DNA of 64,000 bases from Alphaproteobacteria bacterium (GTDB taxonomy: Bacteria; Pseudomonadota; Alphaproteobacteria; Rickettsiales; JABCZZ01): NCBI GenBank assembly GCA_035906055.1, contig JAMIFV010000043.1:455-64454 (forward strand). The letters run 5' to 3'. The notes under the pieces are model-generated. The model saw nothing but the letters and a program-made list of their open reading frames with translations, was not told the origin of the DNA and ran no database searches. Every line of letters starts with the position of its first letter. Position 1 is the first letter of the stretch. The position numbers were made by a program, and so were the translations under genes. Shown here one piece after another: positions 34,552-48,969 of this stretch.

Positions 34552-34628
34552 GCACCCGTAGCTCAACTGGATAGAGTATTGCCCTCCGAAGGCAAGGGTT
34601 GCTGGTTCAAATCCAGTCGGGTGCGCCA
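34552..34628 (+). tRNA. tRNA-Arg (anticodon CCG)
   Basis: Manual fold. Acceptor GCACCCG/CGGGTGC, D arm GCTC-AACTGGATA-GAGT, anticodon arm TTGCC-CTCCGAA-GGCAA, T arm GCTGG-TTCAAAT-CCAGT, discriminator G, encoded CCA. Confidence 0.9.
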
Positions 34629-34636
34629 GTTTTCGC

Positions 34637-36655
34637 TTAAGCGGCGGACTTGATCAGCACCTTTTCCCTTGGGCCGTCAGCAAGGATGCGCGAGCGCCCC
34701 ACCACAATGATACGGTCGCATGCCGACAGCAGGTGATGGCTGTGCGTGCTGATAAGCATGGTGCAGGTGCCTTTGAGCGCCGCAAGCTGGCGCGCCAGAT
34801 GTTCTTCCAGCTGCGCGTCCAGCCCGTTCGTCGGTTCGTCCAGCAGCAGCAATTGCGGCTCAAATGCAATCGCCCGTGCCAGCGCCACCAGTTGTTTCTG
34901 CCCTCCTGAAAGCGCATTGCCGCGCTGTCCTGCCTCGGTCGTCCAGTTGAGGCCGTTCTCCTGGAAGCTCTTTATCAGGCCGGTTATTTCAAGCGCCTTG
35001 CGGCGCGCTTCAGAAGAAAGCTGCGGTCTGCCGGCGCGAATATTCTCTTCGATCGTGCCGTCGATCAGCGAGACGTCCTGTGGTTTGTAACCTATCATGC
35101 GCGAAATATCGTCCGCAGTCATCGTGGATACGGGAATATTATCGATCAGCACCTGCCCCGCATCGGGGTGGATAAGCCCGGTGACAAGGCGCATCAATGT
35201 GGTTTTACCGCTGCCCGGCGCCCCGGCGATGCCCACCATCTCACCGTGCCGGATCTGCAGGGTCACATCCTTGAGCACAGGATGCCCCCCATGCCCCATA
35301 TTGCAGGTTACGTTATCCAGCCGCACTGAAGCTTGCGCCATCTCATGCGCAGCAACAGGCTTGCGCGGCGCATAGCCGGTGGGCAATATCCGGTTTAACT
35401 CCCTCAGCGCATTGCGCAGTTCATAGTACCGCACAAACAGCGTGGTGACCGAGGAAAAGCTCGCAATCATCCTCGCCGTGAGCATGGAGGCCGCCAGTAA
35501 CCCGCCGGAAGTAAGGCTGCCCGCTTCCACCATGTAGGCCCCCCCCACCAGCACGACGGCATAGGAAAGAAACGACAGCTCATTGCTGGCCGACTGCCCG
35601 ATGCCAAACCACACGCGCGCCATGCTGGAGGAATAGGACGCCGTATTACTCGCGCCATACCATTTATTGGCAATGGCGTTCTCGGCATATTTGCCCAGCA
35701 GCGCGTCGCGGGAGTGGATAATGTCCGCCAGCAGGCCAAGGCGCTTCTCGCTGGCACGGCTGGAATTCTTTTCATAGCGCAGCGCCGGGCGGATAATGAG
35801 GGCGTTTATCACCACCACCATAAGCCCGAAGCCAAGCCCCACAAACACCAGCGGCCCCGCAACCAGTGTGATTGCCAGCGCAAACAGGATGAGGAACGGC
35901 AGATCCGCCAGCGCCAGCATGTAAGTGGACGATACGAAATCGCGGTAATGCACCAGCTGCTTGTAACGCTCAAGCACCATGCCTATCTCAGGCAGGGCAT
36001 TGGGCTTCGTGTTCATGAGGCTGCGCAGTATCGTGCGGTCAAAGCCCGCGTCGCTGGAGCGTGCCACGCGTTCCGACACCAGCGTGCGGATGACACGCAG
36101 CGAGAAATCCATCACGGCGATGATGCCCATGCCTATGAGCAGCGCCCACATCGTCGCGGTTATGCCGTTGGCCAGCACTTTGTCGTATACGAAGCTGCTG
36201 AACAGCGGCAATGCCAGCGCGAACATGTTCACCAGCACACCGCACAGGAATATCTGCGCCAGCTTCGGCGTATGCCTGCGGATATGCGTCATCACACGGT
36301 CCGCTTCACCGTAAGGCTGAAGGATCACCAGTATCTCGGCCACATTGTTCAGGTCGTCGGGCGCTACGCCGCGGGCGACAGTGCCGTTTTCATTTACGAT
36401 GCAGCCGTTTTCCGCAGCACCGGCGACCGGAACATAACCGCCATCGTTTAGCAGCAGCACGCAGCCCACCTGTCCGTCTTCGTCGGGCAGCGCCTGATAC
36501 AGCAGCGGCATGCGCTTATGCACCATGCCTACGCTGGCAAGCTGATCTTTAAGCTCATTGTCACTGGGAGCCGCACGCTCAGATGCAAGCAATACACCGC
36601 GCGTTGCAAGCACTGCTGAAATGGCCCCACCGAGCGACTGGACCGCCATTATCAC
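34637..36655 (-). CDS. type I secretion system permease/ATPase (ABC exporter) with ~130-aa N-terminal extra domain
   Basis: 672 aa. TM domain, then Walker [10 protein letters not shown], signature [14 protein letters not shown], Walker B LLLLDEPT. The start (GTG 36655 or ATG 36649) overlaps or abuts the stop of the RTX gene. Confidence 0.92.
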
Positions 36656-39600
36656 GCCCCGTAATGCACATTAAGCTGTGCGATCTGTGTTATATGGGCT
36701 GGCTCGGAATAATAGCGGTAGACGTAGTCGGAGCCGGAGCCGGTGACCGTGAAATCGCCAGCGGCGGTGAAAGTGTCGCCTGTATCCAGCCTGAAAGCAA
36801 GCGTGGAACTGTTACCCGTATCCACCAGACCTCGTATGTCGCTGGCGGAAAGGGAGTAGGTGTTACCGCTAGCCGAATTGCGCACGTCCAGCGACTCGAT
36901 GGATACGTAACGGGAGCCGTCGAAGCTGTTGGCTGCCAGAGAGGTAAGCCCCGCTATTATCAGGCTGTCAGTGTCGCCGCCGCCGTCTATCAGCGTGAAG
37001 GTCGCCAAATCGCTGGCATTAATATAAAAGCTGTCATTGCCGAGGCCGCCATTAAGCGTGTCCGCCCCGCCGCCGCCGCTAATGATATCGTTACCGCTGC
37101 CACCATTGATGACATTGGCAGAACTGTTGCCATAGAGCACGTCGTCATAGCCAGAACCGGTGATGTTCTCGACATTGGTGATGGTACTGTAGGAATAGAT
37201 GCCGGTGGAACCCGTCCTCGCCTGATAGACGGAGAAGCCGCTGCCCCAGTAGTAGGCCTTGTCGGAAGAGCCGAAGAATGCGCCATCACTGAAAAAGACC
37301 TGCACGCCCGTGCTAGCCGAACTATACCAGTTATTGTCAAATATCACGGTATCGGTGCCGCTGCCACCGTCGATGGTATTGCTGCCCACCGTGGCATATA
37401 TAGTGTCGTTGCCGCCAAGGCCGTAAATGGCGTTCGTGCCGCCCTGCGCGTTGATCTGGTTGTTACCGCCGTTACCCACAAGGATGTCGTTACCGCCAGC
37501 GCCCAGGATATTCTCGATATTGACGAGGAAATCAGTACCGGAATACCCCGTGCCGAACCCGGTGTAAGCAAGGGCTGAACCTGTGGGGCTGCTGCCTGCC
37601 GCGATCGTCAGCGTGGATATGCCCCGGTCAATGTGATCGGCCACGCCGTTACTGTTGATATCAGCGGTGCCATCAAGGTAGATCACCGTATTGTTGTTAG
37701 TATTGACATAATACGTATCGGTTCCGCCGCCGCCGTCGACGCGGTCATTATCCGTCATGCGGATAAAGTCATTGCCGGAACCGCCGAAGATAAAATCCGT
37801 GCCATTGCCCGGATCATAATCCATCGCGGTGGTGGTGCCCCAGATAACGTCGTTGTACGCGCTGGCGATTATGCGGTCGATCCCGCCCTGCGTATACGTA
37901 TCGCCGATGGCGTGTGAAGAAGCGTCCGCAGCGGTTACGCCCCATCCGGCGCCGCTGGAAGCGTTTACCGTTATGGTCTGGCCGAGGCTGTTTCTCGCCG
38001 TACGGCTTACGGAATCAAAATTGACCAGCACGCCCACAGGGGAACTGTTATAATAGATCGTATCATAAGCGCCTGACGTGGTGATTACGCTGTCGGTAGC
38101 GCTATTGAGGTAAAAGGCATTGGTACCCGCACCGCCGTCCAGATATTTGGTGCCGCTGCTGGAGCTGTACAGGTTGTCGTTACCGATGCCACCGTAGAGA
38201 TAATCCGTACCAGCGTTACTGTAGAGGGTGTCGTTGCCATCGTTACCATACAGCACATCGTTGCCGTTACTGCCGGTAATGGTGTCGGCACCGCTTCCGC
38301 CGAGGATCGACGTGATCGAGCTGACGCCGGTGGTCGGCGTGAATGCATACAAGTCGCCGTTGGCAAGGCCAGCCGTGCCTGCGCCCGTCAGCAGGTTGAC
38401 GACAAGACCGGTAGAGTCCGCGGTGTAATTGATCGTGTTGGTTTGTCCTACCCCAAGGTTAGCGCCGTTAGTGCCATCATAACGCACGCCTGCATGCTGG
38501 CTGTAGAAATAATTATTTCCGCTGCCGCCATAAAGCGCGTCATTACCTGCAATGCCGGTATAGAACGTATTATTCCCGTCGCCGCCATAGAGTGTGTCGT
38601 TGCCGGTGCCGCCGGTAAGCGTGTCGTTGCCGTCGCCGCCATAGATCGTATCGTCGCCGCCTCCGCTGGAAATCACGTCGTCACCCGCACCGGCGGTAAT
38701 GGTTTCGGTGGCCGCCGTGCCGGTGATCGTGTCATTGTTCTGCGTGGCGATAAGCCGGGTAATGCCGCTGAACGTGTCGTTTAAGCCCGTGCCTGCCGCT
38801 GTGCCGGAGAGCAATATGGTAAGGCCGGTAGTGGTAACCGTGCTGTAATCGAGCGTGTTCACGCCGCCGCCGCCGGTGATGGAATTCGTGCCCAGCCCCG
38901 GCCTGAACGTATCATCGCCCGAACCGCCGATCAGCGTATCGTCATTGTCGCCCGTGGTAATCGTATTGCCGCCATTGCCGACGGTGATATGGTTGTTGCC
39001 CGCCCCGGCGTTGATCACGTTAGCACCGTCGCCAAGCACGATCGTGTCAGCACCTGCGCCCGCCGTCACGGTGTAATTGCCGCCACCGGCCTGAATATCG
39101 TTAGCGCCGTCCCCTGCCTGGATATTGCCGCCGCCGGAGGTAAGCCGGATAATATCGTCACCGGCACCGCCGGTAATCGTATAGTAGCCGGTGCCGCCGG
39201 TGATAGTGTTGGTGCCGTCACCCGCCGTTATCGTGCTGTCGCCATTACCGACCACGATAGTGTCCGCACCGCTGCCGGTAGTAATCATGTAAGCGCCTGC
39301 GCCAGCGGTAACGCTGTTCACGCCGTCGCCCGCAAATATTTCTCCGCTGCCGTCACCGACAGAGATCGTGTCATCGCCCGAGCCTGTGGTTACGCGGTTA
39401 TAACCGGCCCCCAGCGTCACGCTGTTGGTGCCGTCACCCGCGTCGACGATATTATCACCCGCCAAGGCCGTGATCGTATCGTTGCCGGAACCGGTGGATG
39501 CCGAGTTATTGCCCGCCCCCAGATCCACGATGTTGTTGCCGTTGCCCAGTGCCACCGTATCGTTGCCTTCGCGGGCATAGATGGTTTTGTCCCCATCTCC

Positions 39601-40917
39601 GCCGGTGATTGTGTCGTTATTGCGTCCGGCATGCACTTCGTCATTGCCGGTGGAAAGGGCGATGATGTTGGGCTGATCCTGCGTAGGCAGGATGTAAATC
39701 TCCTGCAGCCTGCCCTGATTTTCGTAAACCAGCGACTGGTCGGTCACCTGGCTCACATCGGTAACGTCCATATACAGGAAACGGAACGTCTGCTGACTGT
39801 GGAACTGTTGCGCACGCGTGGTCTTGCCGGTCACATCCACGGTAATATCGAAGCTGCCCGTTCCAGCAGTATCATAAATGAGGGTAAAAGAATCCTGCGC
39901 CAGCACGCTGCTTGAAGAAAGCGTCCAGTTGCCGCCGCCATTGTCGGTAGCGCCCAGAATGGAAACACCCGCCGGAACCCCGGATATCTGGACGTCATCC
40001 AGTGTAATGAAATAGCCTGCCACATTCAGGATAAACTGCTTGGCGTAATTGCTGGTGCTGACGGCGGGGTTGCTGTTGCCAACCGCTGGCCCCTGCGCGT
40101 AGATCAGGTCGTTGCCTGCGGTGCCGGTGATCGTGGCAGCGGAAAACTGCAATGCGTTGCGCGGGCCGATCTGCGCGTCCGCACCCGAACCCGCCGCACC
40201 GCCACCGCCATAAATGATGGTGGTGCCGGGCATGGTCGTGGTGTCATAAGTCGTGCTTACAACGTTGCCCATGAACAATGTGGTAATCGGCGTCAGGCTT
40301 AAAGGGGGCGGAACACCGGGAGGAGAAGCCGACGCCTGCGGGGGCGGCTTGTATTCATGCGGCGGTTCGTAGCTGTAATCCGAAGTATGCAGGTTCTGGA
40401 TGATCTTCTGTGCCTTATCGAGCATCTTTTCCGCAGCGGAACCTTCAGTGTTCTGGCTAGTGGACGACGTGCTCTGGGACGAGGAAGACGACGACTCATC
40501 CTGCTTGTGCTGCTCTTTTTCCGTCTCGGCCTGTGCCTTGGCCTCCTTGACGGCTTTCTCCACCGCTTCTTCCAGCTCGGCCCTGGTAAACTCCTTGGAG
40601 AGGTCTTCTTCGGCGGGCTTCTGCTCCTGCATGTCCGCCGACGTAAGCAAGGTGGAGCTGTCTACGGCACGCAATGTGGAATTCACCTGCGCCAGCAGCG
40701 CGTCCGCCGCCATCTTCTGACCTTGAAATTCTATTTCCGCAGGGGACTCGCTCATTGCTGAAAGCCCCGCGCCCGGCAGCACGATCAGGCTTCCGTCCTG
40801 TAACTGCAGCAAAATATCCACGTCGACAATGTCGATCCTGCTGATGGAGGAAAACGCCACATCAGAAAGGACATACGCCCCTGCCGCATTCGGTTTTACA
40901 AGTGCCTTCTGTGACAT
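36652..40917 (-). CDS. large RTX / hemolysin-type calcium-binding repeat protein (putative T1SS substrate, adhesin-like)
   Basis: 1421 aa. N-terminus ...ISRIDIVDVDILLQLQDGSLIVLPGAG resembles Bap/LapA-type prefix modules. Next comes a charged, Ser-rich and Pro-rich linker. The central region has hundreds of residues of GxGxD/N nonapeptide-like repeats, including canonical GGAGDDVISSGGGDDTIYGGDGNDTLTGGTGNDTLYGG. No Cys-rich or signal-peptide features. The acidic, Gly-rich C-terminal region is typical of T1SS cargo. Confidence 0.9.
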   Translation of the reverse strand: MSQKALVKPNAAGAYVLSDVAFSSISRIDIVDVDILLQLQDGSLIVLPGAGLSAMSESPAEIEFQGQKMAADALLAQVNSTLRAVDSSTLLTSADMQEQKPAEEDLSKEFTRAELEEAVEKAVKEAKAQAETEKEQHKQDESSSSSSQSTSSTSQNTEGSAAEKMLDKAQKIIQNLHTSDYSYEPPHEYKPPPQASASPPGVPPPLSLTPITTLFMGNVVSTTYDTTTMPGTTIIYGGGGAAGSGADAQIGPRNALQFSAATITGTAGNDLIYAQGPAVGNSNPAVSTSNYAKQFILNVAGYFITLDDVQISGVPAGVSILGATDNGGGNWTLSSSSVLAQDSFTLIYDTAGTGSFDITVDVTGKTTRAQQFHSQQTFRFLYMDVTDVSQVTDQSLVYENQGRLQEIYILPTQDQPNIIALSTGNDEVHAGRNNDTITGGDGDKTIYAREGNDTVALGNGNNIVDLGAGNNSASTGSGNDTITALAGDNIVDAGDGTNSVTLGAGYNRVTTGSGDDTISVGDGSGEIFAGDGVNSVTAGAGAYMITTGSGADTIVVGNGDSTITAGDGTNTITGGTGYYTITGGAGDDIIRLTSGGGNIQAGDGANDIQAGGGNYTVTAGAGADTIVLGDGANVINAGAGNNHITVGNGGNTITTGDNDDTLIGGSGDDTFRPGLGTNSITGGGGVNTLDYSTVTTTGLTILLSGTAAGTGLNDTFSGITRLIATQNNDTITGTAATETITAGAGDDVISSGGGDDTIYGGDGNDTLTGGTGNDTLYGGDGNNTFYTGIAGNDALYGGSGNNYFYSQHAGVRYDGTNGANLGVGQTNTINYTADSTGLVVNLLTGAGTAGLANGDLYAFTPTTGVSSITSILGGSGADTITGSNGNDVLYGNDGNDTLYSNAGTDYLYGGIGNDNLYSSSSGTKYLDGGAGTNAFYLNSATDSVITTSGAYDTIYYNSSPVGVLVNFDSVSRTARNSLGQTITVNASSGAGWGVTAADASSHAIGDTYTQGGIDRIIASAYNDVIWGTTTAMDYDPGNGTDFIFGGSGNDFIRMTDNDRVDGGGGTDTYYVNTNNNTVIYLDGTADINSNGVADHIDRGISTLTIAAGSSPTGSALAYTGFGTGYSGTDFLVNIENILGAGGNDILVGNGGNNQINAQGGTNAIYGLGGNDTIYATVGSNTIDGGSGTDTVIFDNNWYSSASTGVQVFFSDGAFFGSSDKAYYWGSGFSVYQARTGSTGIYSYSTITNVENITGSGYDDVLYGNSSANVINGGSGNDIISGGGGADTLNGGLGNDSFYINASDLATFTLIDGGGDTDSLIIAGLTSLAANSFDGSRYVSIESLDVRNSASGNTYSLSASDIRGLVDTGNSSTLAFRLDTGDTFTAAGDFTVTGSGSDYVYRYYSEPAHITQIAQLNVHYGA

Positions 40918-40956
40918 ATCTGCGGTTTTCCGAGACCCTTACGCGTTATAACGATC

Positions 40957-42333
40957 TCAACCTTGCCCTCCTTCCATGCGATCCCTCAGGCTGCGCGCCT
41001 CGGTCACCATTTCTTCCACAAGGATGCTCTGGTGACTGATGGAGGTCGAGATTGATTCTATAATAGTAGATAATGACTCAAAACCCGTTAACTTTTCTTT
41101 AATATCCCACAAATGACGGCCTGATCCAACACCTGCCTGTTCAATCGCCCCGGCCTTTTCCACCATATTCCTGAAGGAAGCCATAACATCGCTATGCGAG
41201 CGCCGCTGGGAATCGAGCACTGCCGTCAACGAGCTCGCCAATTGCACATGAATATCAGATACCTGCTGAAGAACACGCTGCTGTTCCAGATTAGAGGCAA
41301 CAAGGGAGCGCAATTCTTCCAGCGTGCGTTCGCCGGTTTCCTTCATACGCGGACCGAACCCCAGCAGTTCGTTGAGCTTGGTGGTGCCGTTGATGCTGTT
41401 TTCAAACGACTTAAAAAGAACATCGAGTTTTGTCAGAAGCTTATCCATTCTATTGGCCAGCAGCACGTTGCTTTGCCAGTTCTTGCCAGCCCCCGGCTCC
41501 ACCCCCTCCAGCTCCATTGAGGCGAGCGTCGCGATCGTCTGCGACTGCATGGCGATATTGGGATTGCTCTTGCGCGTGATCTGCGTCAGGTCATGCATCA
41601 CATTACGCGCGCACATTACTACACGGCTGACGAAATGGCGCAGGTTGGTCATCATGATGGACAGCATGAGACTGGTCACAAGGCCAAACATGGACGCGGA
41701 AAACGCGATGCCCATGCCCGCCAGCGGCTTGCGCAATTCATGGATAAGCCGCTTGAACTGTTCTTCGGGGCTTTCACTGCTGCCGCTCATGCCGCCAAGC
41801 ATTTCCGAAATGCCGGTCAGCGTTTGCAGCAGACCGATGAACGTGCCGAGCAGGCCAAGCGCGATCATGAAGCCGACAAGGAACTGCGGAAATTCCAGCT
41901 TGCTGTTATAATCGTCCAGCAGCGCGTGCAGTTCGCTTTCGATCGCGTTCTGGTCAAGCTGCGAGCTCAGCGTGCCGCCCGTTTCAGCGATATGCTTCAG
42001 GTAATGCCTTACGTAGCGCTCACTGATCCAGGGCTCTTCGAGCAGTTCCTTCATCGGCACACCGGCGGCAGCTTCCTTGCCAAAGCGCTCGATGACGCGG
42101 AAATCCTTCTGCGCGCTGCGCAGACGTTGCAATATGATAAGCGTGCCGTACAACGCCGTGCAGATGATCGCGCCGCTGATGGCGAGATCCTTTTCAATCG
42201 CTTCCTTGACGAAATCGCTGAAATAAAACGCCAGCAACAGAATAAGCACCAGCGGCGACATCACCTTGATCGTCACCACCACTTCGCGGTAAAGAATCGG
42301 GTCTTTTTTTGCCAGGCTGCGAAATACGTTCAT
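40957..42333 (-). CDS. MotA/TolQ/ExbB proton-channel family-like protein with long C-terminal helical tail
   Basis: 458 aa. Two N-terminal TM helices, then FLVGFMIALGLLGTFIGLLQTL and GMGIAFSASMFGLVTSLMLSIMMTNL, which match the MotA_ExbB core (GLLGT..G ... A...T..GL). About 220 C-terminal residues are heptad-like and charged. ATGA overlap with the HlyD gene stop. Confidence 0.7.
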   Translation of the reverse strand: MNVFRSLAKKDPILYREVVVTIKVMSPLVLILLLAFYFSDFVKEAIEKDLAISGAIICTALYGTLIILQRLRSAQKDFRVIERFGKEAAAGVPMKELLEEPWISERYVRHYLKHIAETGGTLSSQLDQNAIESELHALLDDYNSKLEFPQFLVGFMIALGLLGTFIGLLQTLTGISEMLGGMSGSSESPEEQFKRLIHELRKPLAGMGIAFSASMFGLVTSLMLSIMMTNLRHFVSRVVMCARNVMHDLTQITRKSNPNIAMQSQTIATLASMELEGVEPGAGKNWQSNVLLANRMDKLLTKLDVLFKSFENSINGTTKLNELLGFGPRMKETGERTLEELRSLVASNLEQQRVLQQVSDIHVQLASSLTAVLDSQRRSHSDVMASFRNMVEKAGAIEQAGVGSGRHLWDIKEKLTGFESLSTIIESISTSISHQSILVEEMVTEARSLRDRMEGGQG

Positions 42334-43676
42334 ATGGAATCCTTAAATATACTGTAAGTGAATTTTCTGACCGGAGACAGAATGAGGTTGAGCACGGTGC
42401 GTTTGCCCGTGACAATATCCGCTGTTGCCGTCATGCCGGGTGACATGGAAAGCCCCTGATAGCTTGACGGCAGCGCGCTGACCAGAACGCTGACGCGGTA
42501 AAACACCTCCCCGCGCGCATCGGCGATGGTGTCGGCGCTGATCTCCTTCACCTTGCCTTTGAGCACACCGAGTTCGCCCACATCGTAGGCGGAAAGGCGC
42601 ACCGTCGCGTCAAGCCCCGGTGCCAGATACCCTCTGTCCTTGGGCAAGGCCTGCGCTTCAATAAGTATCTCGCTCGTGGAGGGGATCAGCTCGAGTATCT
42701 TGTCGCCTGCGCGAATAACCCCACCGATAGTGTTCACCGTGATGCGGTTCACCGTGCCGTCGATCGGCGAACGTATGTCCGTGCGGCGGTAACGATCGGA
42801 ATCGCCGCGCAATACCTTCTCAAGTCGTTCGATCTCCGCAAGCGCCGCCACATAATCGGTCTGGGCGCTCGTTACGAAATCCGACTGGATGGCTTTCTTC
42901 CTCGCATTCTCCTCGGCTATGGCCGCTTCCAGCGTGGGGATGCTGCTGGCCGCATCGTTGGTTTCGGTCTCCAGCCTGCCTTCACGGCTGCGCGCTTCAA
43001 GCAGTTCCAGCTTTGAAGACGACCCGCGCGCGGCCATTTCCTCGATCAGCCCGGAGCGGTTATGCGCCACCCCCAGTTCACCCCTGAGCTTTACCACGCG
43101 CGTTTTTGCCTCGTTAAGGCGGGCGGTATGCTGGTTGATCGCCTCCGCATGCACCTTCATCTCCTGCGCCAGTTTTTCCCTGCGCGAAGCGAACAGCTTC
43201 TCTTCGGCCCTGCCAACAGGCGTGTTTGCCAGCTCTTCGGGAAGCGTAAAGTCAGCACTTCCCCTGGACTCGCTCTCCAGCCTCGCGGCACGCAGTTTCT
43301 GCGTCGTGATCTTGGCTTTGGTCTCTTCCAGATTGGCCCCCGCCGATACATTATCAATCGTCAGCAGCAGGTCGCCCTTCTTTACCGCAGCACCTTCCAC
43401 AACGGCAATCGAACCGATGATGCCACCTTCGAGATGCTGTATGGACTGGCTACGCCCGGCCGCGATGATCTTGCCGTTCACGCGCACCACCCGGTCGATT
43501 TCGGATACATAAGCCCACAGCAATGCCGCAACCACGCAGAATGCGACCAGCAGCACGTACAGCATCGTTCCTTCCATGCGACCGGGCGCGCGCGGCGGCG
43601 GCACGGCACCACCAGGCGGCTGTGAGGAGGCCGCGCTGTCAATGCCCTTCAAGAAGTATCTCAACATGGCCTGCAT
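42330..43676 (-). CDS. HlyD-family type I secretion periplasmic adaptor (MFP)
   Basis: 448 aa. One N-terminal TM helix. Lipoyl-like VNGKIIAAGRSQSIQHLEGGIIGSIAVVEGAAVKKGDLLLTID, a long coiled-coil hairpin, and C-terminal beta-barrel motifs. Confidence 0.9.
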   Translation of the reverse strand: MQAMLRYFLKGIDSAASSQPPGGAVPPPRAPGRMEGTMLYVLLVAFCVVAALLWAYVSEIDRVVRVNGKIIAAGRSQSIQHLEGGIIGSIAVVEGAAVKKGDLLLTIDNVSAGANLEETKAKITTQKLRAARLESESRGSADFTLPEELANTPVGRAEEKLFASRREKLAQEMKVHAEAINQHTARLNEAKTRVVKLRGELGVAHNRSGLIEEMAARGSSSKLELLEARSREGRLETETNDAASSIPTLEAAIAEENARKKAIQSDFVTSAQTDYVAALAEIERLEKVLRGDSDRYRRTDIRSPIDGTVNRITVNTIGGVIRAGDKILELIPSTSEILIEAQALPKDRGYLAPGLDATVRLSAYDVGELGVLKGKVKEISADTIADARGEVFYRVSVLVSALPSSYQGLSMSPGMTATADIVTGKRTVLNLILSPVRKFTYSIFKDSI

Positions 43677-44262
43677 TCTTACTTTCGCTAGCGTTAAGGG
43701 GCTGCAGTATCCTGCTGTTAATCTTGTCCCCGGTCGTAAACCCCTTATCGATAAGGAACTTCCTTACATACAGCGCACGGTAATACGCAAGGCGCTGCGC
43801 GACGCTGTACGCCTCACCGCCCAGATAGGAATTGATAATGATCTTCTGGCTAGGCGACTTTCTGATTTCCACCAGCGCGTCCACCAGCTTTTGCGACGAC
43901 CCGTCGTCGAGGTCAACGCCGGACGCGGAATAATTGATGACCAGCTTACCTGCGCTCTTGACGATGTCTGCCTGCGTGCGCGCCGAATCATCGAGGAACC
44001 TGCTTGCCTCGGCGCTGTCGATCACCACGTCCTCATTGGCTACGGGTGCCGCTTGTTTAGCAGGCGTCACCTGCGCCTGCTGCTGTTGCTCAATCACTTT
44101 TTTCTGCTCGATGATGTCCTGCAGTTTCTTTTCCACCTTGTTGGCGGAAAGCGACAAGGCAATAACGAATACCACCAGCACGAACACCAGCGTCAGCACC
44201 ACGTTGCTGAGCACGTCCACAAAGCCCGGCCAGTAATTTTGTTCTTTTCCGCCGCTGTCCAT
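43639..44262 (-). CDS. MotB/OmpA-like protein (stator B-subunit-like)
   Basis: 207 aa. N-terminus NYWPGFVDVLSNVVLTLVFVLVVFVIAL parallels the MotB W..[13 protein letters not shown] plug/TM segment, including the Asp just before the helix. The C-terminus ...GGEAYSVAQRLAYYRALYVRKFLIDKGF is a divergent OmpA_C-like motif. Confidence 0.65.
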   Translation of the reverse strand: MDSGGKEQNYWPGFVDVLSNVVLTLVFVLVVFVIALSLSANKVEKKLQDIIEQKKVIEQQQQAQVTPAKQAAPVANEDVVIDSAEASRFLDDSARTQADIVKSAGKLVINYSASGVDLDDGSSQKLVDALVEIRKSPSQKIIINSYLGGEAYSVAQRLAYYRALYVRKFLIDKGFTTGDKINSRILQPLNASESKNAGHVEILLEGH

Positions 44263-44264
44263 GT

Positions 44265-46487
44265 TCAGTCCTTCTTCGCCACCTGCGTGTTCCTGGTATG
44301 CTGCGCCACCAGCAGGGGCACAAGATCGCCCATCTGCCGGTGCACCTGATACGCCGCCATGATGCGCGTAACTTCCATACGCATCATGTTCATGCGGTTG
44401 TTATAAAGCTGCCCGTGCGCGTCCAATAGCTCGAAAATGGAACGGCTGCCGTTCTTGTACTGGTCGGTGAACTCAGCCACCACCTTCTCGCTGGCAGCGA
44501 TGGCATCGCGCATGAGCCCGATACGCTGGTCGGCGGCATGAATGGAATTGTAACTGGCGACCATCGCTTCCTCGAGGCGGGACTTTACGTCCAGCGAACG
44601 CAGGCGCGCTTCCTTGGATTTTTCGATTGCCGTGAGGCCCGAACCAATCTCCATGCCGCCGTTGAGCGTCCAGCGCGCCACCAGCATCAGGCGCTTGTCG
44701 CGCTGGCTGGGATAAACGCCGTCCACCGGGTTGCCGTTGGCCGCGCCGCCTGCATTATAAATATCGGTATCCGAATATTCGAGGCCCAGCTTGGGAACCG
44801 CTTTGGAAAAGGCATTGTTGCGCGTGGAGTCGGCAATATCCACTTTATTGCGGCTGACGATATAATCCGGGTTCTGCCTGATCGCGGCCTGCAGCGCTTC
44901 ATCAAGCGACACGGGCACATCAGGCACGGTGATCGAGATTGCGGCAAGCTGCGCAGGCGTTATCTGTGTAAGACGACGGAATTCCGCGAGACTGGTTTCA
45001 TATTCGCCCTGCGCTTCCGCCTGCGCCGCTTCCGCATTGCTCGCATGCACCTTGATACGTTCAAGATCCCCCACCGTTGCACCGCCCACTTCAACCCTTG
45101 TGGCCATATAGTCCGAAAGCTCATTCAGGCGCGTGCGGTACTGACCGGCGAGGTCATAGGCGATCTTGGACTGCACCAGCCTGAGATAGGCGCTGATGGT
45201 GTCATAGGCGATACCGTCCCGCTCGGCGGCGGCCTGATTCTTGATAAGCGATTCCTTATCAGTGCTATTGAGAATCTCCGCCACCACCTCCAGATCAATC
45301 AATGGCTGGCTCACCGCAAGCATGCGATCGGTTCGGGTATGCTTGTCATTGAGCACGCGGTTGCCGAACACGTCGTTATACGACGCAGGCGCCGACTGCT
45401 CTTTGCCGCGCGAAAACTTTACATCCACAGACGGCAGCATGCGTGAATAGGCCGTCATCTTTTCCAGTTGCGCTGATTTCGTGGTGGAATGGCCTGCCTT
45501 AATCTCAAGATTGTTTTTTAGCGCGAAAGCAACCGCTTCATCCATGCGAATGGGCTCCAGCACACTGGCCGCGCGGGCATACTGCCCTACATTCAGGCTG
45601 ACGATGCCATCGAAATGCTTAAGGAAACTAGTGATGACACTGTATTTAACCGCTGGAATTGAAGTAAAAGGATCATCGGCCAGCGCTATGCCTGGAAGCT
45701 CATGCGCAGGCGGTATTGCAGGTGCCTGCACCTGCTCTGCCACAGGTACAGACGCTACAGCAGACGCGACCGCTGGCGCTGGCTCGCCAGTGGCCTCCCG
45801 CACAGGGGCGAGGGCGGGCTTTTCAGACATAGTCACAGAAGCTGGCGCGGGCGTATCCTGCACCATCGCAAGCGGAGAGCTGGCCGCACCGGCGGACGGA
45901 GCCAGCATCGGCGCGGATATTGTGGCCGGAGCCTGTGCCGCCTGCGCAACCGGCGCGGCAGCGGGAGCAGTGACCGCATGCTGTGAATTCACACGGGGCA
46001 GCACCCTTATGCCGTCCGTCATCTCCGCAGATGCAGGTGTGACCACTGAAGCAGCTTCACTGGCTTCGGCTTGCTGCTGCCACGGCAAAGGCCCGGAAAG
46101 TGCAGCGCCTGCACGCGCAGGCGCGGCAACGGCCTGCCAGGGCAGCGCAGCGGACTGCTGCGCCGGGGACGTAACCGTTTTCTGTTGCTTGAGGGATTCC
46201 ACCGCTTCTTCCAGCGACTGTGCGGCTTCCTGCAGTGATCTGGCGGAGCGCTCCAGCGCCGCCAGCGAATGCGTACTGGTTGCATCCTGCGCCATACCCT
46301 GCGCAAGTGCGTGGCGCGGCGTGGCGGGAGCGGTCAGGGCAAGCGGGCTACTTTCGGCAGCGTGCACAAGGGAAATTTTGCTAACGGCGCAGACTAAACA
46401 AAACGCCAGCACCGGCCAGCAATTTTGCCTCCCAACCCTACCCTGTTTTATATGCATTTTGTTATTGTCCGCGTCCGGTTCGGACAA
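44265..46487 (-). CDS. TolC-family outer membrane protein with ~300-aa low-complexity N-terminal extension
   Basis: 740 aa. Signal-like WPVLAFCLVCAVSKISLVHA, then a long Ala/Pro/Gln/Ser-rich region. From about residue 300 the sequence shows the TolC-type two-repeat pattern (MDEAVAFALKNNLEIKAG...LPSVDV...). The start could be 46457. Confidence 0.85.
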   Translation of the reverse strand: MSEPDADNNKMHIKQGRVGRQNCWPVLAFCLVCAVSKISLVHAAESSPLALTAPATPRHALAQGMAQDATSTHSLAALERSARSLQEAAQSLEEAVESLKQQKTVTSPAQQSAALPWQAVAAPARAGAALSGPLPWQQQAEASEAASVVTPASAEMTDGIRVLPRVNSQHAVTAPAAAPVAQAAQAPATISAPMLAPSAGAASSPLAMVQDTPAPASVTMSEKPALAPVREATGEPAPAVASAVASVPVAEQVQAPAIPPAHELPGIALADDPFTSIPAVKYSVITSFLKHFDGIVSLNVGQYARAASVLEPIRMDEAVAFALKNNLEIKAGHSTTKSAQLEKMTAYSRMLPSVDVKFSRGKEQSAPASYNDVFGNRVLNDKHTRTDRMLAVSQPLIDLEVVAEILNSTDKESLIKNQAAAERDGIAYDTISAYLRLVQSKIAYDLAGQYRTRLNELSDYMATRVEVGGATVGDLERIKVHASNAEAAQAEAQGEYETSLAEFRRLTQITPAQLAAISITVPDVPVSLDEALQAAIRQNPDYIVSRNKVDIADSTRNNAFSKAVPKLGLEYSDTDIYNAGGAANGNPVDGVYPSQRDKRLMLVARWTLNGGMEIGSGLTAIEKSKEARLRSLDVKSRLEEAMVASYNSIHAADQRIGLMRDAIAASEKVVAEFTDQYKNGSRSIFELLDAHGQLYNNRMNMMRMEVTRIMAAYQVHRQMGDLVPLLVAQHTRNTQVAKKD

Positions 46488-46587: not shown

Positions 46588-48969
46588 CTATTTCCACCAG
46601 TTTGCGTGGCGGATGACGCCGTCGGGCGAGCGCCTGCCGGAAAGCGCGTCGGTTTCCTCGCGCGAAAGTACGCTGTTTGCCTCCAGCCCCAGAAGCCGTG
46701 CGCCGTGTTGCACGATATGCCCCCACGAGCAGCCGTTCACATAGAGCATGCCTTCCACGTCGAGCGTGCCGCCGTCATTGATAAAACCGAGCGCCTTGAG
46801 TTTTCGCCCCTGCCAGAGGCGCTGCAGCAGCCCCACCATGCCTTCAGGCCGTGTATGGGTAACGAGCAGCAGCGAAGTGATGTGAGCAGGCAGCAACGCG
46901 TCCAGCACTTCGTCAGGCACGCAATGCTCCTTCTCGCCTGCGTTGCGGGCCTCGCGCAGCTTGCCCGGCTCCTGCACATAAATGATGCTATGCGCAACGC
47001 CGTGGCTGGTCAGGCGTAGCGATGCCTTGAGCACTTCCATCAACTGGTGCGTGCCGCAGGCCAGCAGCGCAAGCTTTGCTGATTCCTGTTTATGCCCCGC
47101 CCAGGTGAGGCGCAATGCGCCCTGCTTCCAGAGCTGTACGCATTCTTCTTCGCTGAACATTACCGGTGCGGGCACTTTTGCCATGACCATCGTCCATAGC
47201 TGTCCCTGCGTCTGATACGCCTCGCGCATGAGATAGGCGGCGCTGTTATATTCCGCCGGGAAGAACACGCGGCTGATATCGGCGCTTTCCGACATCATGC
47301 ATTCCGCCATCGAAGGGTCCTGATGCGAAAGCTCATTCTTGCCGTTCTCCCATGTATTGGAGGTCAGCACCAGCGGCACGGAAAGCCAGCCCGGCGGCTT
47401 GCCCGCCTCTTTCTGGTGGCGGGAGAAGATCACCTCCTGCCTTGCGATGCCGTGCATCTTTTCACCGAACGCCTCATAGGTAACGATAAGGTTGATGCCG
47501 CCCTTATTGCCCAACGCGGCGGCGGCCACGGCTTCTTCATTGAGCGCGGTGATCACCGCACCCATGCGCGATTCCGTATTGCCGTCCTCCGGGTCGGTCA
47601 CGCGGAAGTCGGCGAATTTCAGCGTATCATCCATGCGGTTGGAAAGCATTTCGTCCGGGTTGCCCACACGCGCGCGCAAGTGCGGGTTAAGCATCACCGT
47701 ATCACGGTACATGCGGTCGATGGCGTCCATGGGGCTATGTTTGGAGTCGCGGAACGGATTGGCGCGGTTATTTGCCACCTTCAAAAGCGCGAGGCTCGGG
47801 ATGGTTTCCAGATTAACCTTGCGGCTGGCGATGGGATTATCACGCTCCGGCACCCTGCCCGTTTGCTCGTGATTGCGAAGCGCAGCAGCCGCTTCCTGCA
47901 ATTCGTCCTGCGGCACGAATAATTTATGCACATGCCAGTTGAACAGCTTTTGCGCTTTGGCGTTCTTTGACGGATTTTCCACCAGCGGCAGGTTATGCGC
48001 AGGGTTCTTGCCTGCATTATAAAAACCCGCACCTTTGGGCGCCACGGCGATGATGTAGGGCATGCGCACCATGGACGACGCTTTTTCGGCGTTTCGCTGA
48101 AGTGCCTTTTCCGCCTCGATGATCGCCCATGCGAATGCCAGCGGGTCGCGCCCGTCGATGATGACGGGATCAAAATTATGCAGCTTCAGGTAACGCGCAA
48201 ACCAGCGTGCGCCGCCCTGCTGCGCCATAGTCGTGCGCTGGTCGATGCGCCTGCCATTGGCGATCATCACCGGCACTACCAGCCCGCTATCCTTGGCGCG
48301 CCACCAGCGCGGCGCCCAGTCCGTACCCTTCTGTTCTTCCCATGCGCCATCACTGAGGAACGCCACAAGACGCTCACCCGGCAGCGGCACATGCACATAT
48401 TGCAGGCCCGCAAAACCCAGATACCCGCCTTCCATCACGCCGCCCGCCGTATGGGCGTTGACGTGGCTGCCAAGCGGCGATTCCGGTAAGCCCTCCTTGG
48501 TGAGCGCATAGGAATAAAAGTCGCGTGAAAAGCGCGTAAGGCCTTCGTCGCTGACATTGTAACGCGCAACATGCACATCGGTGGCATTGCCCACCAGCAG
48601 GTTGGCGCTGTCGATACCCGATACCGCATGCCCCTGCTCCATGAGCCAGCCGCGCGTGAATCCCGTTATGGCATTGGCCAGCAGGTAGCCCACATAGGCG
48701 GGCACCATATTGAGCGAACCGCCCAGATGCCCTTGCGGGTCGGGTTTGAAATCTTCCGCGTCAAGCGGCCTGCCGTCTAGGAAAATATTGCGTGCATACA
48801 CCTGATGCACTGCCAGCCACATGGCTGCGTTAGCCAGTTTATCCGCTGCTATACATAACGGCGCAGCTTGCGGGTATTGTTCCAGTAACGCCGTTATTCT
48901 TTGCTGGGTCTGGGGAGTGTGGCGGATAACGCCATATCCTTTGCGCCAGTCATTGATGTTTTTTGGCAT
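46588..48969 (-). CDS. phosphoketolase-family protein (divergent)
   Basis: 793 aa, which is the XFP length. GHLGGSLNMVPAYVGYL parallels GHWGTTPGLNFIY. MEGGYLGF parallels EGGELGY. PGERLVAFLSDGAWEE parallels NPDLIVACVVGDGEAE. Confidence 0.7.
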   Translation of the reverse strand: MPKNINDWRKGYGVIRHTPQTQQRITALLEQYPQAAPLCIAADKLANAAMWLAVHQVYARNIFLDGRPLDAEDFKPDPQGHLGGSLNMVPAYVGYLLANAITGFTRGWLMEQGHAVSGIDSANLLVGNATDVHVARYNVSDEGLTRFSRDFYSYALTKEGLPESPLGSHVNAHTAGGVMEGGYLGFAGLQYVHVPLPGERLVAFLSDGAWEEQKGTDWAPRWWRAKDSGLVVPVMIANGRRIDQRTTMAQQGGARWFARYLKLHNFDPVIIDGRDPLAFAWAIIEAEKALQRNAEKASSMVRMPYIIAVAPKGAGFYNAGKNPAHNLPLVENPSKNAKAQKLFNWHVHKLFVPQDELQEAAAALRNHEQTGRVPERDNPIASRKVNLETIPSLALLKVANNRANPFRDSKHSPMDAIDRMYRDTVMLNPHLRARVGNPDEMLSNRMDDTLKFADFRVTDPEDGNTESRMGAVITALNEEAVAAAALGNKGGINLIVTYEAFGEKMHGIARQEVIFSRHQKEAGKPPGWLSVPLVLTSNTWENGKNELSHQDPSMAECMMSESADISRVFFPAEYNSAAYLMREAYQTQGQLWTMVMAKVPAPVMFSEEECVQLWKQGALRLTWAGHKQESAKLALLACGTHQLMEVLKASLRLTSHGVAHSIIYVQEPGKLREARNAGEKEHCVPDEVLDALLPAHITSLLLVTHTRPEGMVGLLQRLWQGRKLKALGFINDGGTLDVEGMLYVNGCSWGHIVQHGARLLGLEANSVLSREETDALSGRRSPDGVIRHANWWK

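Follow-up and report, generated by a model that had tools for sequence, protein, structure and literature searches.

The window analysed here, a 64,000-nucleotide stretch of contig JAMIFV010000043.1 (positions 455 to 64,454, forward strand) from the alphaproteobacterial assembly GCA_035906055.1 (Rickettsiales; JABCZZ01), carries on its minus strand a compact group of six genes that combines a type I secretion system (T1SS) with a pair of proteins resembling MotA/MotB-type ion channels. The six open reading frames (ORFs) are present in the ORF list at the coordinates of the initial annotation, which had read them as one T1SS operon, and this reading is confirmed by family models for the outer-membrane channel (OEP), the periplasmic adaptor (TIGR01843), the RTX-repeat cargo (HemolysinCabind) and the ABC exporter (Table 1). 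ORF coordinates also confirm that the channel pair is interleaved with the secretion genes, in the order TolC-like, MotB-like, HlyD, MotA-like, cargo and ABC exporter. We find that the pair is homologous to SiiA and SiiB encoded by Salmonella pathogenicity island 4 (SPI-4), and that the operon is a SiiAB-type T1SS in the broad sense, belonging to a divergent clade of such systems with interleaved gene order and RTX cargo.

Table 1. Components, key motifs and 3' boundary of the six-gene operon (window coordinates; aa, amino acids; TM, transmembrane)
Feature	Coordinates	Strand	Details
TolC-family outer-membrane channel, SiiC counterpart	44265..46487	-	740 aa; OEP PF02321 119.6 bits; TIGR01844 over residues 315-734
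SiiA-like (MotB-type) B subunit	43639..44262	-	207 aa; one TM helix, variable linker, compact OmpA-like peptidoglycan-binding domain (predicted)
HlyD-family periplasmic adaptor, SiiD counterpart	42330..43676	-	448 aa; TIGR01843 330.9 bits
SiiB-like (MotA/ExbB-type) A subunit	40957..42333	-	458 aa; PF01618 33.9 bits
RTX-repeat cargo, presumed secreted	36652..40917	-	1421 aa; 17 HemolysinCabind stretches
T1SS ABC exporter, SiiF counterpart	34637..36655	-	672 aa; TIGR03375 454 bits; ABC_tran, ABC_membrane
Asp16 codon within NYWPGFVD, presumed proton carrier	44215..44217	-	codon checked; equivalent to SiiA Asp13 and MotB Asp32/33
RLAYYR motif (R157-L158-x3-R162), reduced peptidoglycan-binding motif	43777..43794	-	translation checked; spacing as in SiiA R162-L163-x3-R167
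Cargo N-terminal domain, residues 1-95, presumed retention handle	40633..40917	-	hhalign against the SiiE N-terminus
Predicted coiled coil, Glu/Lys/Ala-rich, cargo residues 100-140	40498..40620	-	read from the sequence
tRNA-Arg(CCG), 3' boundary of the operon; flank, not a component	34552..34628	+	ARAGORN

The canonical T1SS core of adaptor, ABC exporter and outer-membrane factor is present and looks complete. All Pfam matches to OEP, ABC_tran and ABC_membrane exceed their gathering scores, and the adaptor exceeds the TIGR01843 cut-off of 208.65 bits; TIGR01844 for the TolC-like protein (118.6 bits) and TIGR03375 for the ABC exporter (cut-off 693 bits) are the best models and score under their cut-offs. 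Among the models that the initial annotation had proposed as checks, PF01618 and TIGR01843 are matched above their cut-offs, and PF00691, TIGR01844 and TIGR03375 are matched under theirs. The adaptor is 26% identical to SiiD (E 2e-24). A BLASTP comparison of the TolC-like protein with SiiC gives no match, which is uninformative in the very divergent OEP family, and the common ground of these two proteins is the Pfam family only. The TolC-like protein carries an N-terminal extension of ~300 aa (residues ~11-315, window positions 45540-46457, minus strand), in which a short coiled coil is followed by Ala/Pro/Gln-rich low-complexity sequence, and which may act as a periplasmic tether. Judging by stop-to-stop ORF lengths, many related loci appear to have similar extensions, and the extension is absent from the relative at locus L090 (442 aa) and from SiiC (439 aa). 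Only residues 134-667 of the ABC exporter align to HlyB; its N-terminal ~130 aa (36266-36655, minus strand) match neither the C39-like domain of HlyB nor the first 140 positions of TIGR03375, and may be either a C39-like domain that has diverged strongly or an appendix of another kind.

Measured by ORF coordinates, the five junctions of the operon are those originally described. The TolC-like and MotB-like genes are 2 nucleotides (nt) apart, the MotB-like gene overlaps the HlyD gene by 38 nt, the HlyD and MotA-like genes share an ATGA, 39 nt separate the MotA-like gene from the cargo gene, and the cargo and ABC exporter genes overlap in a GTGA. Of these, the 38-nt overlap hinges on the choice of the HlyD start codon and may not stand. 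An internal ATG, Met38 at ~43565, is preceded by a GGAAGGA Shine-Dalgarno sequence, marks the point where the TIGR01843 and SiiD alignments begin, and agrees with the gene calls of homologous loci, which leave a short gap at this junction; a start at Met38 is plausible and would turn the overlap into a gap of ~70 nt. Similarly, the true start of the TolC-like protein is probably Met11 (46457), which would yield a normal signal peptide. Promoter and terminator scans of the operon returned no more sites than in shuffled sequence, or fewer, and are uninformative on operon structure.

The two additional proteins are the A and B subunits of an ion channel of the MotAB/ExbBD/TolQR-type superfamily, because the MotA-like protein matches MotA_ExbB (PF01618) above the gathering score of 22.9 bits and has an ExbB/TolQ-like predicted fold, and the MotB-like protein combines an invariant transmembrane Asp with a following OmpA-like domain; the original assignment of the pair to stator-type channels is therefore correct. 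The A subunit has four hydrophobic segments, at residues 18-36, 50-68, 151-169 and 204-222. The loop between TM2 and TM3, presumably cytoplasmic, is extremely conserved, and TM3 and TM4 hardly vary (GLLGTFIGLL.TLTGIS and PLAGMGIAFSASMFGL). They are followed by an all-helical C-terminal tail of ~225 aa (40957-41640, minus strand), which is covered by no Pfam family. GFGPRMKE is an invariant motif of this tail, and a G.GRHL.EIKE module recurs in it, being present in duplicate in some homologues (P0005, P0008). Lengths in the family range from 418 to ~700 aa, with the tail varying by insertions and internal duplications in a manner reminiscent of ZorA tails. In the AlphaFold model of the A subunit the mean predicted local distance difference test score (pLDDT) is 72.7, with values of 80-94 in the transmembrane core, and the top Foldseek matches of the model are ExbB (7ajq, E 2e-4) and TolQ, both with a probability of 1.0, followed by PomA, ZorA and MotA at lower rank. 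The protein also has weak matches to ZorA.

The B subunit begins with the motif N-[YF]-W-P-G-F-V-D-x-L-[SA]-N-V-V, found in every homologue and followed by a single TM helix; Asp16 within the motif is invariant in 25 aligned homologues as well as in the genome loci described below. A variable, low-confidence linker then leads to a C-terminal domain of ~100 aa, modelled with pLDDT >90, in which R157, A159, Y160 and R162 are invariant, including both arginines of the R-L-x3-R motif. By Pfam this domain matches OmpA (PF00691) at 22.2 bits, under the gathering score of 27.2, and the N-terminal part of the protein has weak matches to PRK09039 and ZorB1.

A characterised T1SS with such a pair does exist, although the initial annotation was aware of none. 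In SPI-4 of Salmonella, SiiC, SiiD and SiiF form the T1SS for the 595-kDa adhesin SiiE, and SiiA (210 aa, MotB-like) and SiiB (MotA/ExbB-like) form a proton channel in the inner membrane (10.1101/641415; PMC12607715; PMC6272769; 10.1101/2021.05.14.443827). Asp13 of SiiA is required for proton flux and for invasion, and its periplasmic domain (SiiA-PD) is an OmpA-like domain that binds peptidoglycan via Arg162 and Arg167 (10.1101/641415). Deletion of siiA and siiB leaves the secretion of SiiE into the supernatant unaffected (PMC12607715) and reduces adhesion and invasion; carbonyl cyanide m-chlorophenylhydrazone (CCCP) lowers SiiE retention, SiiB binds SiiF, and the protein CheM acts through SiiAB by shifting SiiE from release to retention (10.1101/641415; PMC12607715; PMC6272769; 10.1101/2021.05.14.443827). 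The N-terminal region of SiiE governs retention and release, and its coiled coil affects retention (PMC6272769). A 2025 paper names "type I secretion (SiiAB)" among the 5:2 motors (PMC12204202). In view of this precedent, the possibility that the arrangement belongs to an already characterised system, on which the claim of novelty had been made to depend, has largely turned out to be the case; the divergent, interleaved clade with RTX cargo is what is new, and the T1SS carrying a SiiAB-type pair is not.

The SiiA query used in these comparisons is identical to 6qvp in 103 of 104 residues and 98% identical to NCBI proteins named "SPI-4 type I secretion system auxiliary protein SiiA". A search with this single sequence returned 45 protein clusters, all from Salmonella, Yersinia, Hamiltonella or a few metagenome contigs, and none from the clade of the window. 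Later comparisons used the database SiiA family alignment and the SiiB proteins encoded directly downstream of siiA in Salmonella, Yersinia mollaretii, Hamiltonella and one metagenome contig. In the Salmonella and Yersinia loci (L081, L082) siiA and siiB are followed by the genes for the outer-membrane channel, the adaptor and an adhesin with BIg domains; the Hamiltonella locus (L083) has the same first four genes and only a BIg-domain fragment, upstream and on the opposite strand, and the metagenome contig (L084) reaches no further than the third gene.

Profile comparisons reveal that the MotB-like protein is homologous to SiiA specifically. By hhalign, the two families align over 166 columns (97.9%, E 4e-13), from the TM motif through RLAYYR/RLGYER, compared with 0.3% each for E. 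coli MotB and ExbD. The SiiA counterpart of the N-terminal motif is NPWPSFVDTFSTVL, with Asp13. The hidden Markov model (HMM) of the SiiA family scores the window protein at 35.1 bits, ExbD and TolR of E. coli score below 0 and MotB is not reported; in the reciprocal comparison the HMM of the window family scores SiiA at 28.8 bits. Structure comparison by Foldseek agrees, as the predicted periplasmic domain superimposes on SiiA-PD (6qvp) with a target-normalised template modelling score of 0.83 and a root-mean-square deviation of 2.4-2.5 A, the best such score of all matches (rank 3 by E-value), compared with 0.5-0.7 for other OmpA-like domains. SiiA-PD was not detected in the PDB by phmmer or hmmsearch with the MotB-like protein, its family profile or a profile of its C-terminal domain, and no SiiA or SiiB model matches in NCBIfam at E <= 10.

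The MotA-like protein is likewise homologous to SiiB specifically. Its family aligns with the SiiB family over 196 columns spanning TM1-TM4 (97.3%, E 1.6e-11), and with E. coli ExbB, TolQ and MotA at 0.7%, 1.2% and 2.5%. The SiiB HMM scores the window A subunit at 47.0 bits, compared with <= 2.5 bits for TolQ, ExbB and MotA, and the reciprocal score of the window A-family HMM against SiiB is 39.4 bits; all four HMMs built from the Sii and window families score the E. coli controls at <= 2.5 bits.

The conservation of the cassette was assessed by a scan of species-representative genomes with the MotA-like protein, which yielded 79 loci whose six-frame ORFs were searched with the six proteins of the window. 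In 76 of the 79 loci the HlyD and MotB-like genes precede the MotA-like gene, and an RTX cargo and an ABC exporter lie alongside wherever the contig reaches; the exceptions (L010, L030 and L074) deviate or look degraded. The neighbourhood check that had been proposed for this arrangement thus comes out in its favour. The loci belong to Alphaproteobacteria (Magnetospirillum, Oleispirillum, Rhodospirillaceae, and metagenome-assembled genomes (MAGs) of Micavibrio and Rickettsiales) and Betaproteobacteria (Herbaspirillum, Herminiimonas, Oxalicibacterium, Duganella, MAGs of Burkholderiaceae and one of Nitrosomonas), the closest named locus being that of the uncultured Nitrosomonas MAG at 68% identity. 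The triad of MotB-like, adaptor and MotA-like genes forms the invariant core, the adaptor gene always lying between the two motor genes. Around this core the order of cargo and ABC genes is swapped in Oxalobacteraceae (ABC, then cargo), and some Magnetospirillum-like loci have the TolC-like gene last in the cluster. Metagenome contigs with independent gene calls and Pfam labels carry the same cassette, including 4 contigs beyond the 79 loci. In distant relatives (E 1e-56, 1e-38 and 1e-27) the MotB-like/adaptor/MotA-like order is also kept, and where their contigs extend an RTX cargo follows in two, with an ABC exporter in one of them. Clustering of flanking ORFs reveals no seventh gene common to the alpha- and betaproteobacterial loci. 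The arrangement is far beyond chance and the cassette is a single co-inherited unit; a chance adjacency of a Tol/Exb pair to T1SS genes is rejected on the conserved synteny. In an exhaustive HMMER search of 1.84 billion cluster representatives, homologues of the MotA-like protein number 101 at E <= 1e-30, 821 at E <= 1e-10, a count that may take in other long-tailed MotA-like proteins, and 1384 at E <= 0.001.

Three of the loci (L014, L018 and L029) lie on MAG contigs labelled Bacteroidota, Candidatus Limiplasma and Candidatus Sulfotelmatobacter. Their cassettes resemble those of the Magnetospirillum and Rhodospirillales loci in gene order, scores and cargo N-terminal sequence, and mis-binning or recent transfer is likely.

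The cargo is acidic and rich in Gly, Thr, Ser and Asp. HemolysinCabind (E 1e-64 over its 17 stretches) is the only domain matched in it by Pfam, with no BIg domains, and its C-terminal region presumably holds the secretion signal. Between residues ~430 and 680 (window positions ~38870-39630, minus strand) there is a long run of 18-residue Gly/Asp/Thr-rich repeats, with GxGxD recurring every 36 residues (e.g. at 476, 512, 548, 584 and 620), distinct from the RTX nonapeptide blocks downstream. The initial annotation called this a giant surface protein; at 1421 aa it is large and not giant, and homologous cargos range from ~1000 to >3100 aa. An N-terminal domain of ~90 aa (...VDVDLVL.TKDG.R.VLPGA...AM...PP.V.F.DG...LL..VG) is conserved in the cargos of 73 of the 79 loci and is homologous to the N-terminus of SiiE (hhalign against a two-sequence SiiE profile, 88.8%, E 2.5e-6, 68 columns). 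In both proteins this domain is followed by a charged coiled coil, giving the same domain order. Given this conservation and the resemblance to SiiE, we presume the domain to be a retention handle. The cargo of one distant relative (L093:8518-11451; MotA-like E 5e-38) carries both Big_12 and HemolysinCabind domains and is thus a hybrid of the SiiE and RTX types.

Taken component by component, the six proteins of the window correspond one to one to SiiABCDEF. The B subunits are of nearly the same length (207 and 210 aa) and share the xNxWPxFVD motif with its critical Asp, a variable linker, an OmpA-like domain and R-L-x3-R; the A subunits (458 and 462 aa) both have four hydrophobic segments and a helical tail, and, as in SPI-4, the ABC gene follows the cargo gene in the window and in most related loci, with the Oxalobacteraceae reversed. 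The differences are mostly attributed to: i) gene order, which is TolC-MotB-HlyD-MotA-cargo-ABC in the window and siiA-siiB-siiC-siiD-siiE-siiF, with the pair heading the operon, in SPI-4; ii) the components themselves, as the ~300-aa extension of the TolC-like protein is lacking in SiiC, the GFGPRMKE tail motif is peculiar to the clade of the window, and SiiF is reported to have a C39-like domain (PMC12607715), which the N-terminus of the ABC exporter does not match in sequence; and iii) hosts, which are environmental Alpha- and Betaproteobacteria for this clade and enteric Gammaproteobacteria for SPI-4. The homology of the pair to SiiA and SiiB, the SiiA-PD fold, the shared cluster and the SiiE-like cargo N-terminus define the operon as a SiiAB-type T1SS in the broad sense. 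An SPI-4 sii operon in the narrow sense of the Salmonella, Yersinia and Hamiltonella loci is ruled out, as the operon of the window differs in gene order, lacks a cargo with BIg domains and is not detectable with a single SiiA sequence.

On the basis of this correspondence, we consider it likely that the operon encodes an SPI-4-type secretion system in which the SiiAB-like pair provides proton-motive-force-dependent control of cargo retention. The RTX protein would be exported C-terminus first through the ABC exporter, the HlyD adaptor and the TolC-like channel in an ATP-driven manner. The 207-aa and 458-aa proteins would form an inner-membrane unit of the MotAB/ExbBD type, presumably with 5:2 stoichiometry, in which the B subunit carries protons on Asp16 and anchors the unit to peptidoglycan by its compact OmpA-like domain, and the A subunit turns the proton flow into a conformational or rotary movement. 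This movement may be passed to the secretion machine, either the ABC exporter or the adaptor, through the TM2-TM3 loop and the long helical tail; by a MotA-type topology both would face the cytoplasm, on the side of the ABC nucleotide-binding domains. By analogy with SiiAB the output would not be export, but the choice whether the N-terminal domain and coiled coil of the cargo stay lodged in the channel (display) or let go (release). The 5:2 assembly, proton conduction, peptidoglycan binding, contact with the ABC exporter or adaptor, and retention control are all proposed here by homology, and the roles originally suggested for the pair, namely proton-motive-force-dependent retention or release and peptidoglycan anchoring, match what is known of SiiAB.

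Several observations weigh against this reading. Its functional part is borrowed from SiiAB, as complex formation, Asp-dependent proton flux, peptidoglycan binding, ABC contact and retention control are known only for the Salmonella proteins (10.1101/641415; PMC12607715). Sequence identity to SiiA and SiiB lies below what pairwise or PDB-scale HMM searches detect, so that profile comparisons are needed; by hhalign, the C-terminal tail of the A subunit does not align with that of SiiB, and the SiiE N-terminal match is moderate. RTX nonapeptides and 18-residue repeats make up the cargo, in contrast to the 53 BIg domains of SiiE. The PADLOC ZorA1 model scores the MotA-like protein at 41.7 bits over TM3-TM4, about equal to the SiiB model. 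SiiB and SiiA themselves match Zor models, and SiiAB, the clade of the window and ZorAB, which probably form one long-tailed branch of the superfamily, may be sister branches between which function need not transfer. Finally, genes so tightly interleaved, and possibly coupled in translation, could point to a role more integral than that of the pair in SPI-4.

In the main alternative, the motor is part of the export engine itself, so that translocation of the RTX protein would draw on two energy sources and require the proton-motive force, e.g. for opening or assembling the adaptor-TolC conduit or for pulling the chain. The permanent position of the adaptor gene between the motor genes, the very tight junctions, the extreme conservation of the TM2-TM3 loop, and the fact that the pair is never lost in ~80 loci while the TolC-like, ABC and cargo genes are variable in position would all fit such a role, and ExbBD and TolQR do power outer-membrane processes (PMC12204202). 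We nevertheless regard it as unlikely, given that in the only studied homologue the secretion of SiiE is spared when siiA and siiB are deleted (PMC12607715), and that the three canonical T1SS parts are all present and look complete. To our knowledge, canonical T1SS export needs no MotA/MotB-like pair and works without one. A static role, in which the pair would serve as a peptidoglycan anchor or assembly scaffold for the conduit with ion flow irrelevant, appears more improbable still. The OmpA-like domain at the end of the B subunit, nearest to the peptidoglycan-binding domain of SiiA, and the unusual periplasmic extension of the TolC-like protein would fit an anchor, but the transmembrane Asp and the motif around it are unchanged in every homologue, conservation in the A subunit peaks in the TM3/TM4 channel helices, anchoring would not call for a partner of 458 aa and four TM segments, and SiiAB conducts protons (10.1101/641415).

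The remaining explanation considers the pair as a Zorya-like envelope sensor of phage attack or stress that merely sits in a T1SS locus, and to this we assign a very small probability. Of the named profile families, ZorA/ZorB comes closest to both window proteins, with ZorA1 (1.5e-11) and ZorB3 (1.9e-5) as the best matches outside Pfam. ZorA reportedly has a long helical cytoplasmic tail, and that of the window A subunit is similar in kind. But SiiB and SiiA find the same Zor models as their nearest, the ZorA models score the window A subunit at 18-23 bits, far under cut-offs of 100-500, and its tail, at ~225 aa, is much shorter. The context is a T1SS and not a defence island: no candidate ZorC/ZorD/ZorE-type effector gene was seen beside the operon in the window and no additional conserved neighbour in related loci, and in nearly all loci the pair is linked to T1SS genes and to a cargo that bears a matching N-terminal domain. 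ZorAB itself belongs to the 5:2 pentamer:dimer motor family (PMC12204202). Retention control remains the favoured role for the pair.

Other known systems share single features with the operon. With MotAB/PomAB, ExbBD and TolQR the pair has in common the MotA_ExbB Pfam family, the ExbB/TolQ-like fold and a single TM helix with Asp, and with MotB also the predicted OmpA-like peptidoglycan-binding domain. In contrast to these systems, it has a long C-terminal tail and no FliG, TonB or TolA partner, the machine to which it would be coupled being the T1SS, and against the E. coli representatives its hhalign and HMM scores do not rise above noise. The canonical HlyB-HlyD-TolC system has the same ABC exporter, adaptor and outer-membrane channel and an RTX cargo with a C-terminal signal, presumed also in the window; the operon adds to it two strictly co-inherited membrane proteins, predicted to form a proton channel, and a dedicated N-terminal domain of the cargo. 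In LapA-type systems (LapBCE with LapG/LapD) a large repetitive cargo is held at the surface by its N-terminal module and its release is regulated (PMC6272769). The T1SS of the window resembles them in having a large repetitive cargo with an N-terminal module, whereas LapA retention is set by the protease LapG and the c-di-GMP (cyclic diguanylate) receptor LapD. A Lap-type adhesin T1SS was rejected, as neither the cargo nor its neighbours have NCBIfam or Pfam matches to LapG, LapD or a retention module.

More broadly, one may speculate, although we hold this to be somewhat doubtful, that the SiiAB-type motor marks an ancient and widespread subclass of T1SS. In such systems the adaptor and the ABC exporter would be coupled mechanically to a proton-driven 5:2 unit, which would act on an N-terminal handle of the cargo. 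If true, ATP would export the cargo and the proton-motive force would hold, tension or release it, and the TM2-TM3 loop, the GFGPRMKE motif and the co-evolving N-terminal domain of the cargo would be the coupling interfaces.

Since 2014 it has been asked how SiiAB uses the proton-motive force to control a T1SS adhesin, with Salmonella as the only organism studied. The presence of the same six-part machine in a clade much larger and more diverse than the SiiA family extends a poorly understood kind of system, and its members in the cultivable Herbaspirillum, Herminiimonas and Magnetospirillum offer new genetic models. Comparative leverage is provided by the invariant residues of channel, loop and tail, by the cargo N-terminal domain that travels with the motor, and by the constant MotB-adaptor-MotA triad, and there are hundreds of natural variants for solving the SiiAB mechanism. 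Specialists in T1SS or 5:2 motors will not be astonished by such a system; the breadth of the clade, together with the motifs and the co-travelling domain, makes the mechanism more tractable. The clade would also allow correct annotation of proteins that are labelled "hypothetical", "OmpA-like" or "ExbB/TolQ".

Two genes flank the operon. A phosphoketolase (XFP) gene (46588-48969, minus strand) lies 100 nt upstream on the same strand and is probably unrelated to it, because it is not next to the cassette in other lineages. At the opposite end, no integrase was seen nearby and the GC (guanine plus cytosine) content of 0.56-0.59 is the same as that of the flanks. The operon ends right at the tRNA-Arg(CCG) gene, 8 nt past the stop codon of the ABC exporter; tRNA genes are classic sites of island insertion.

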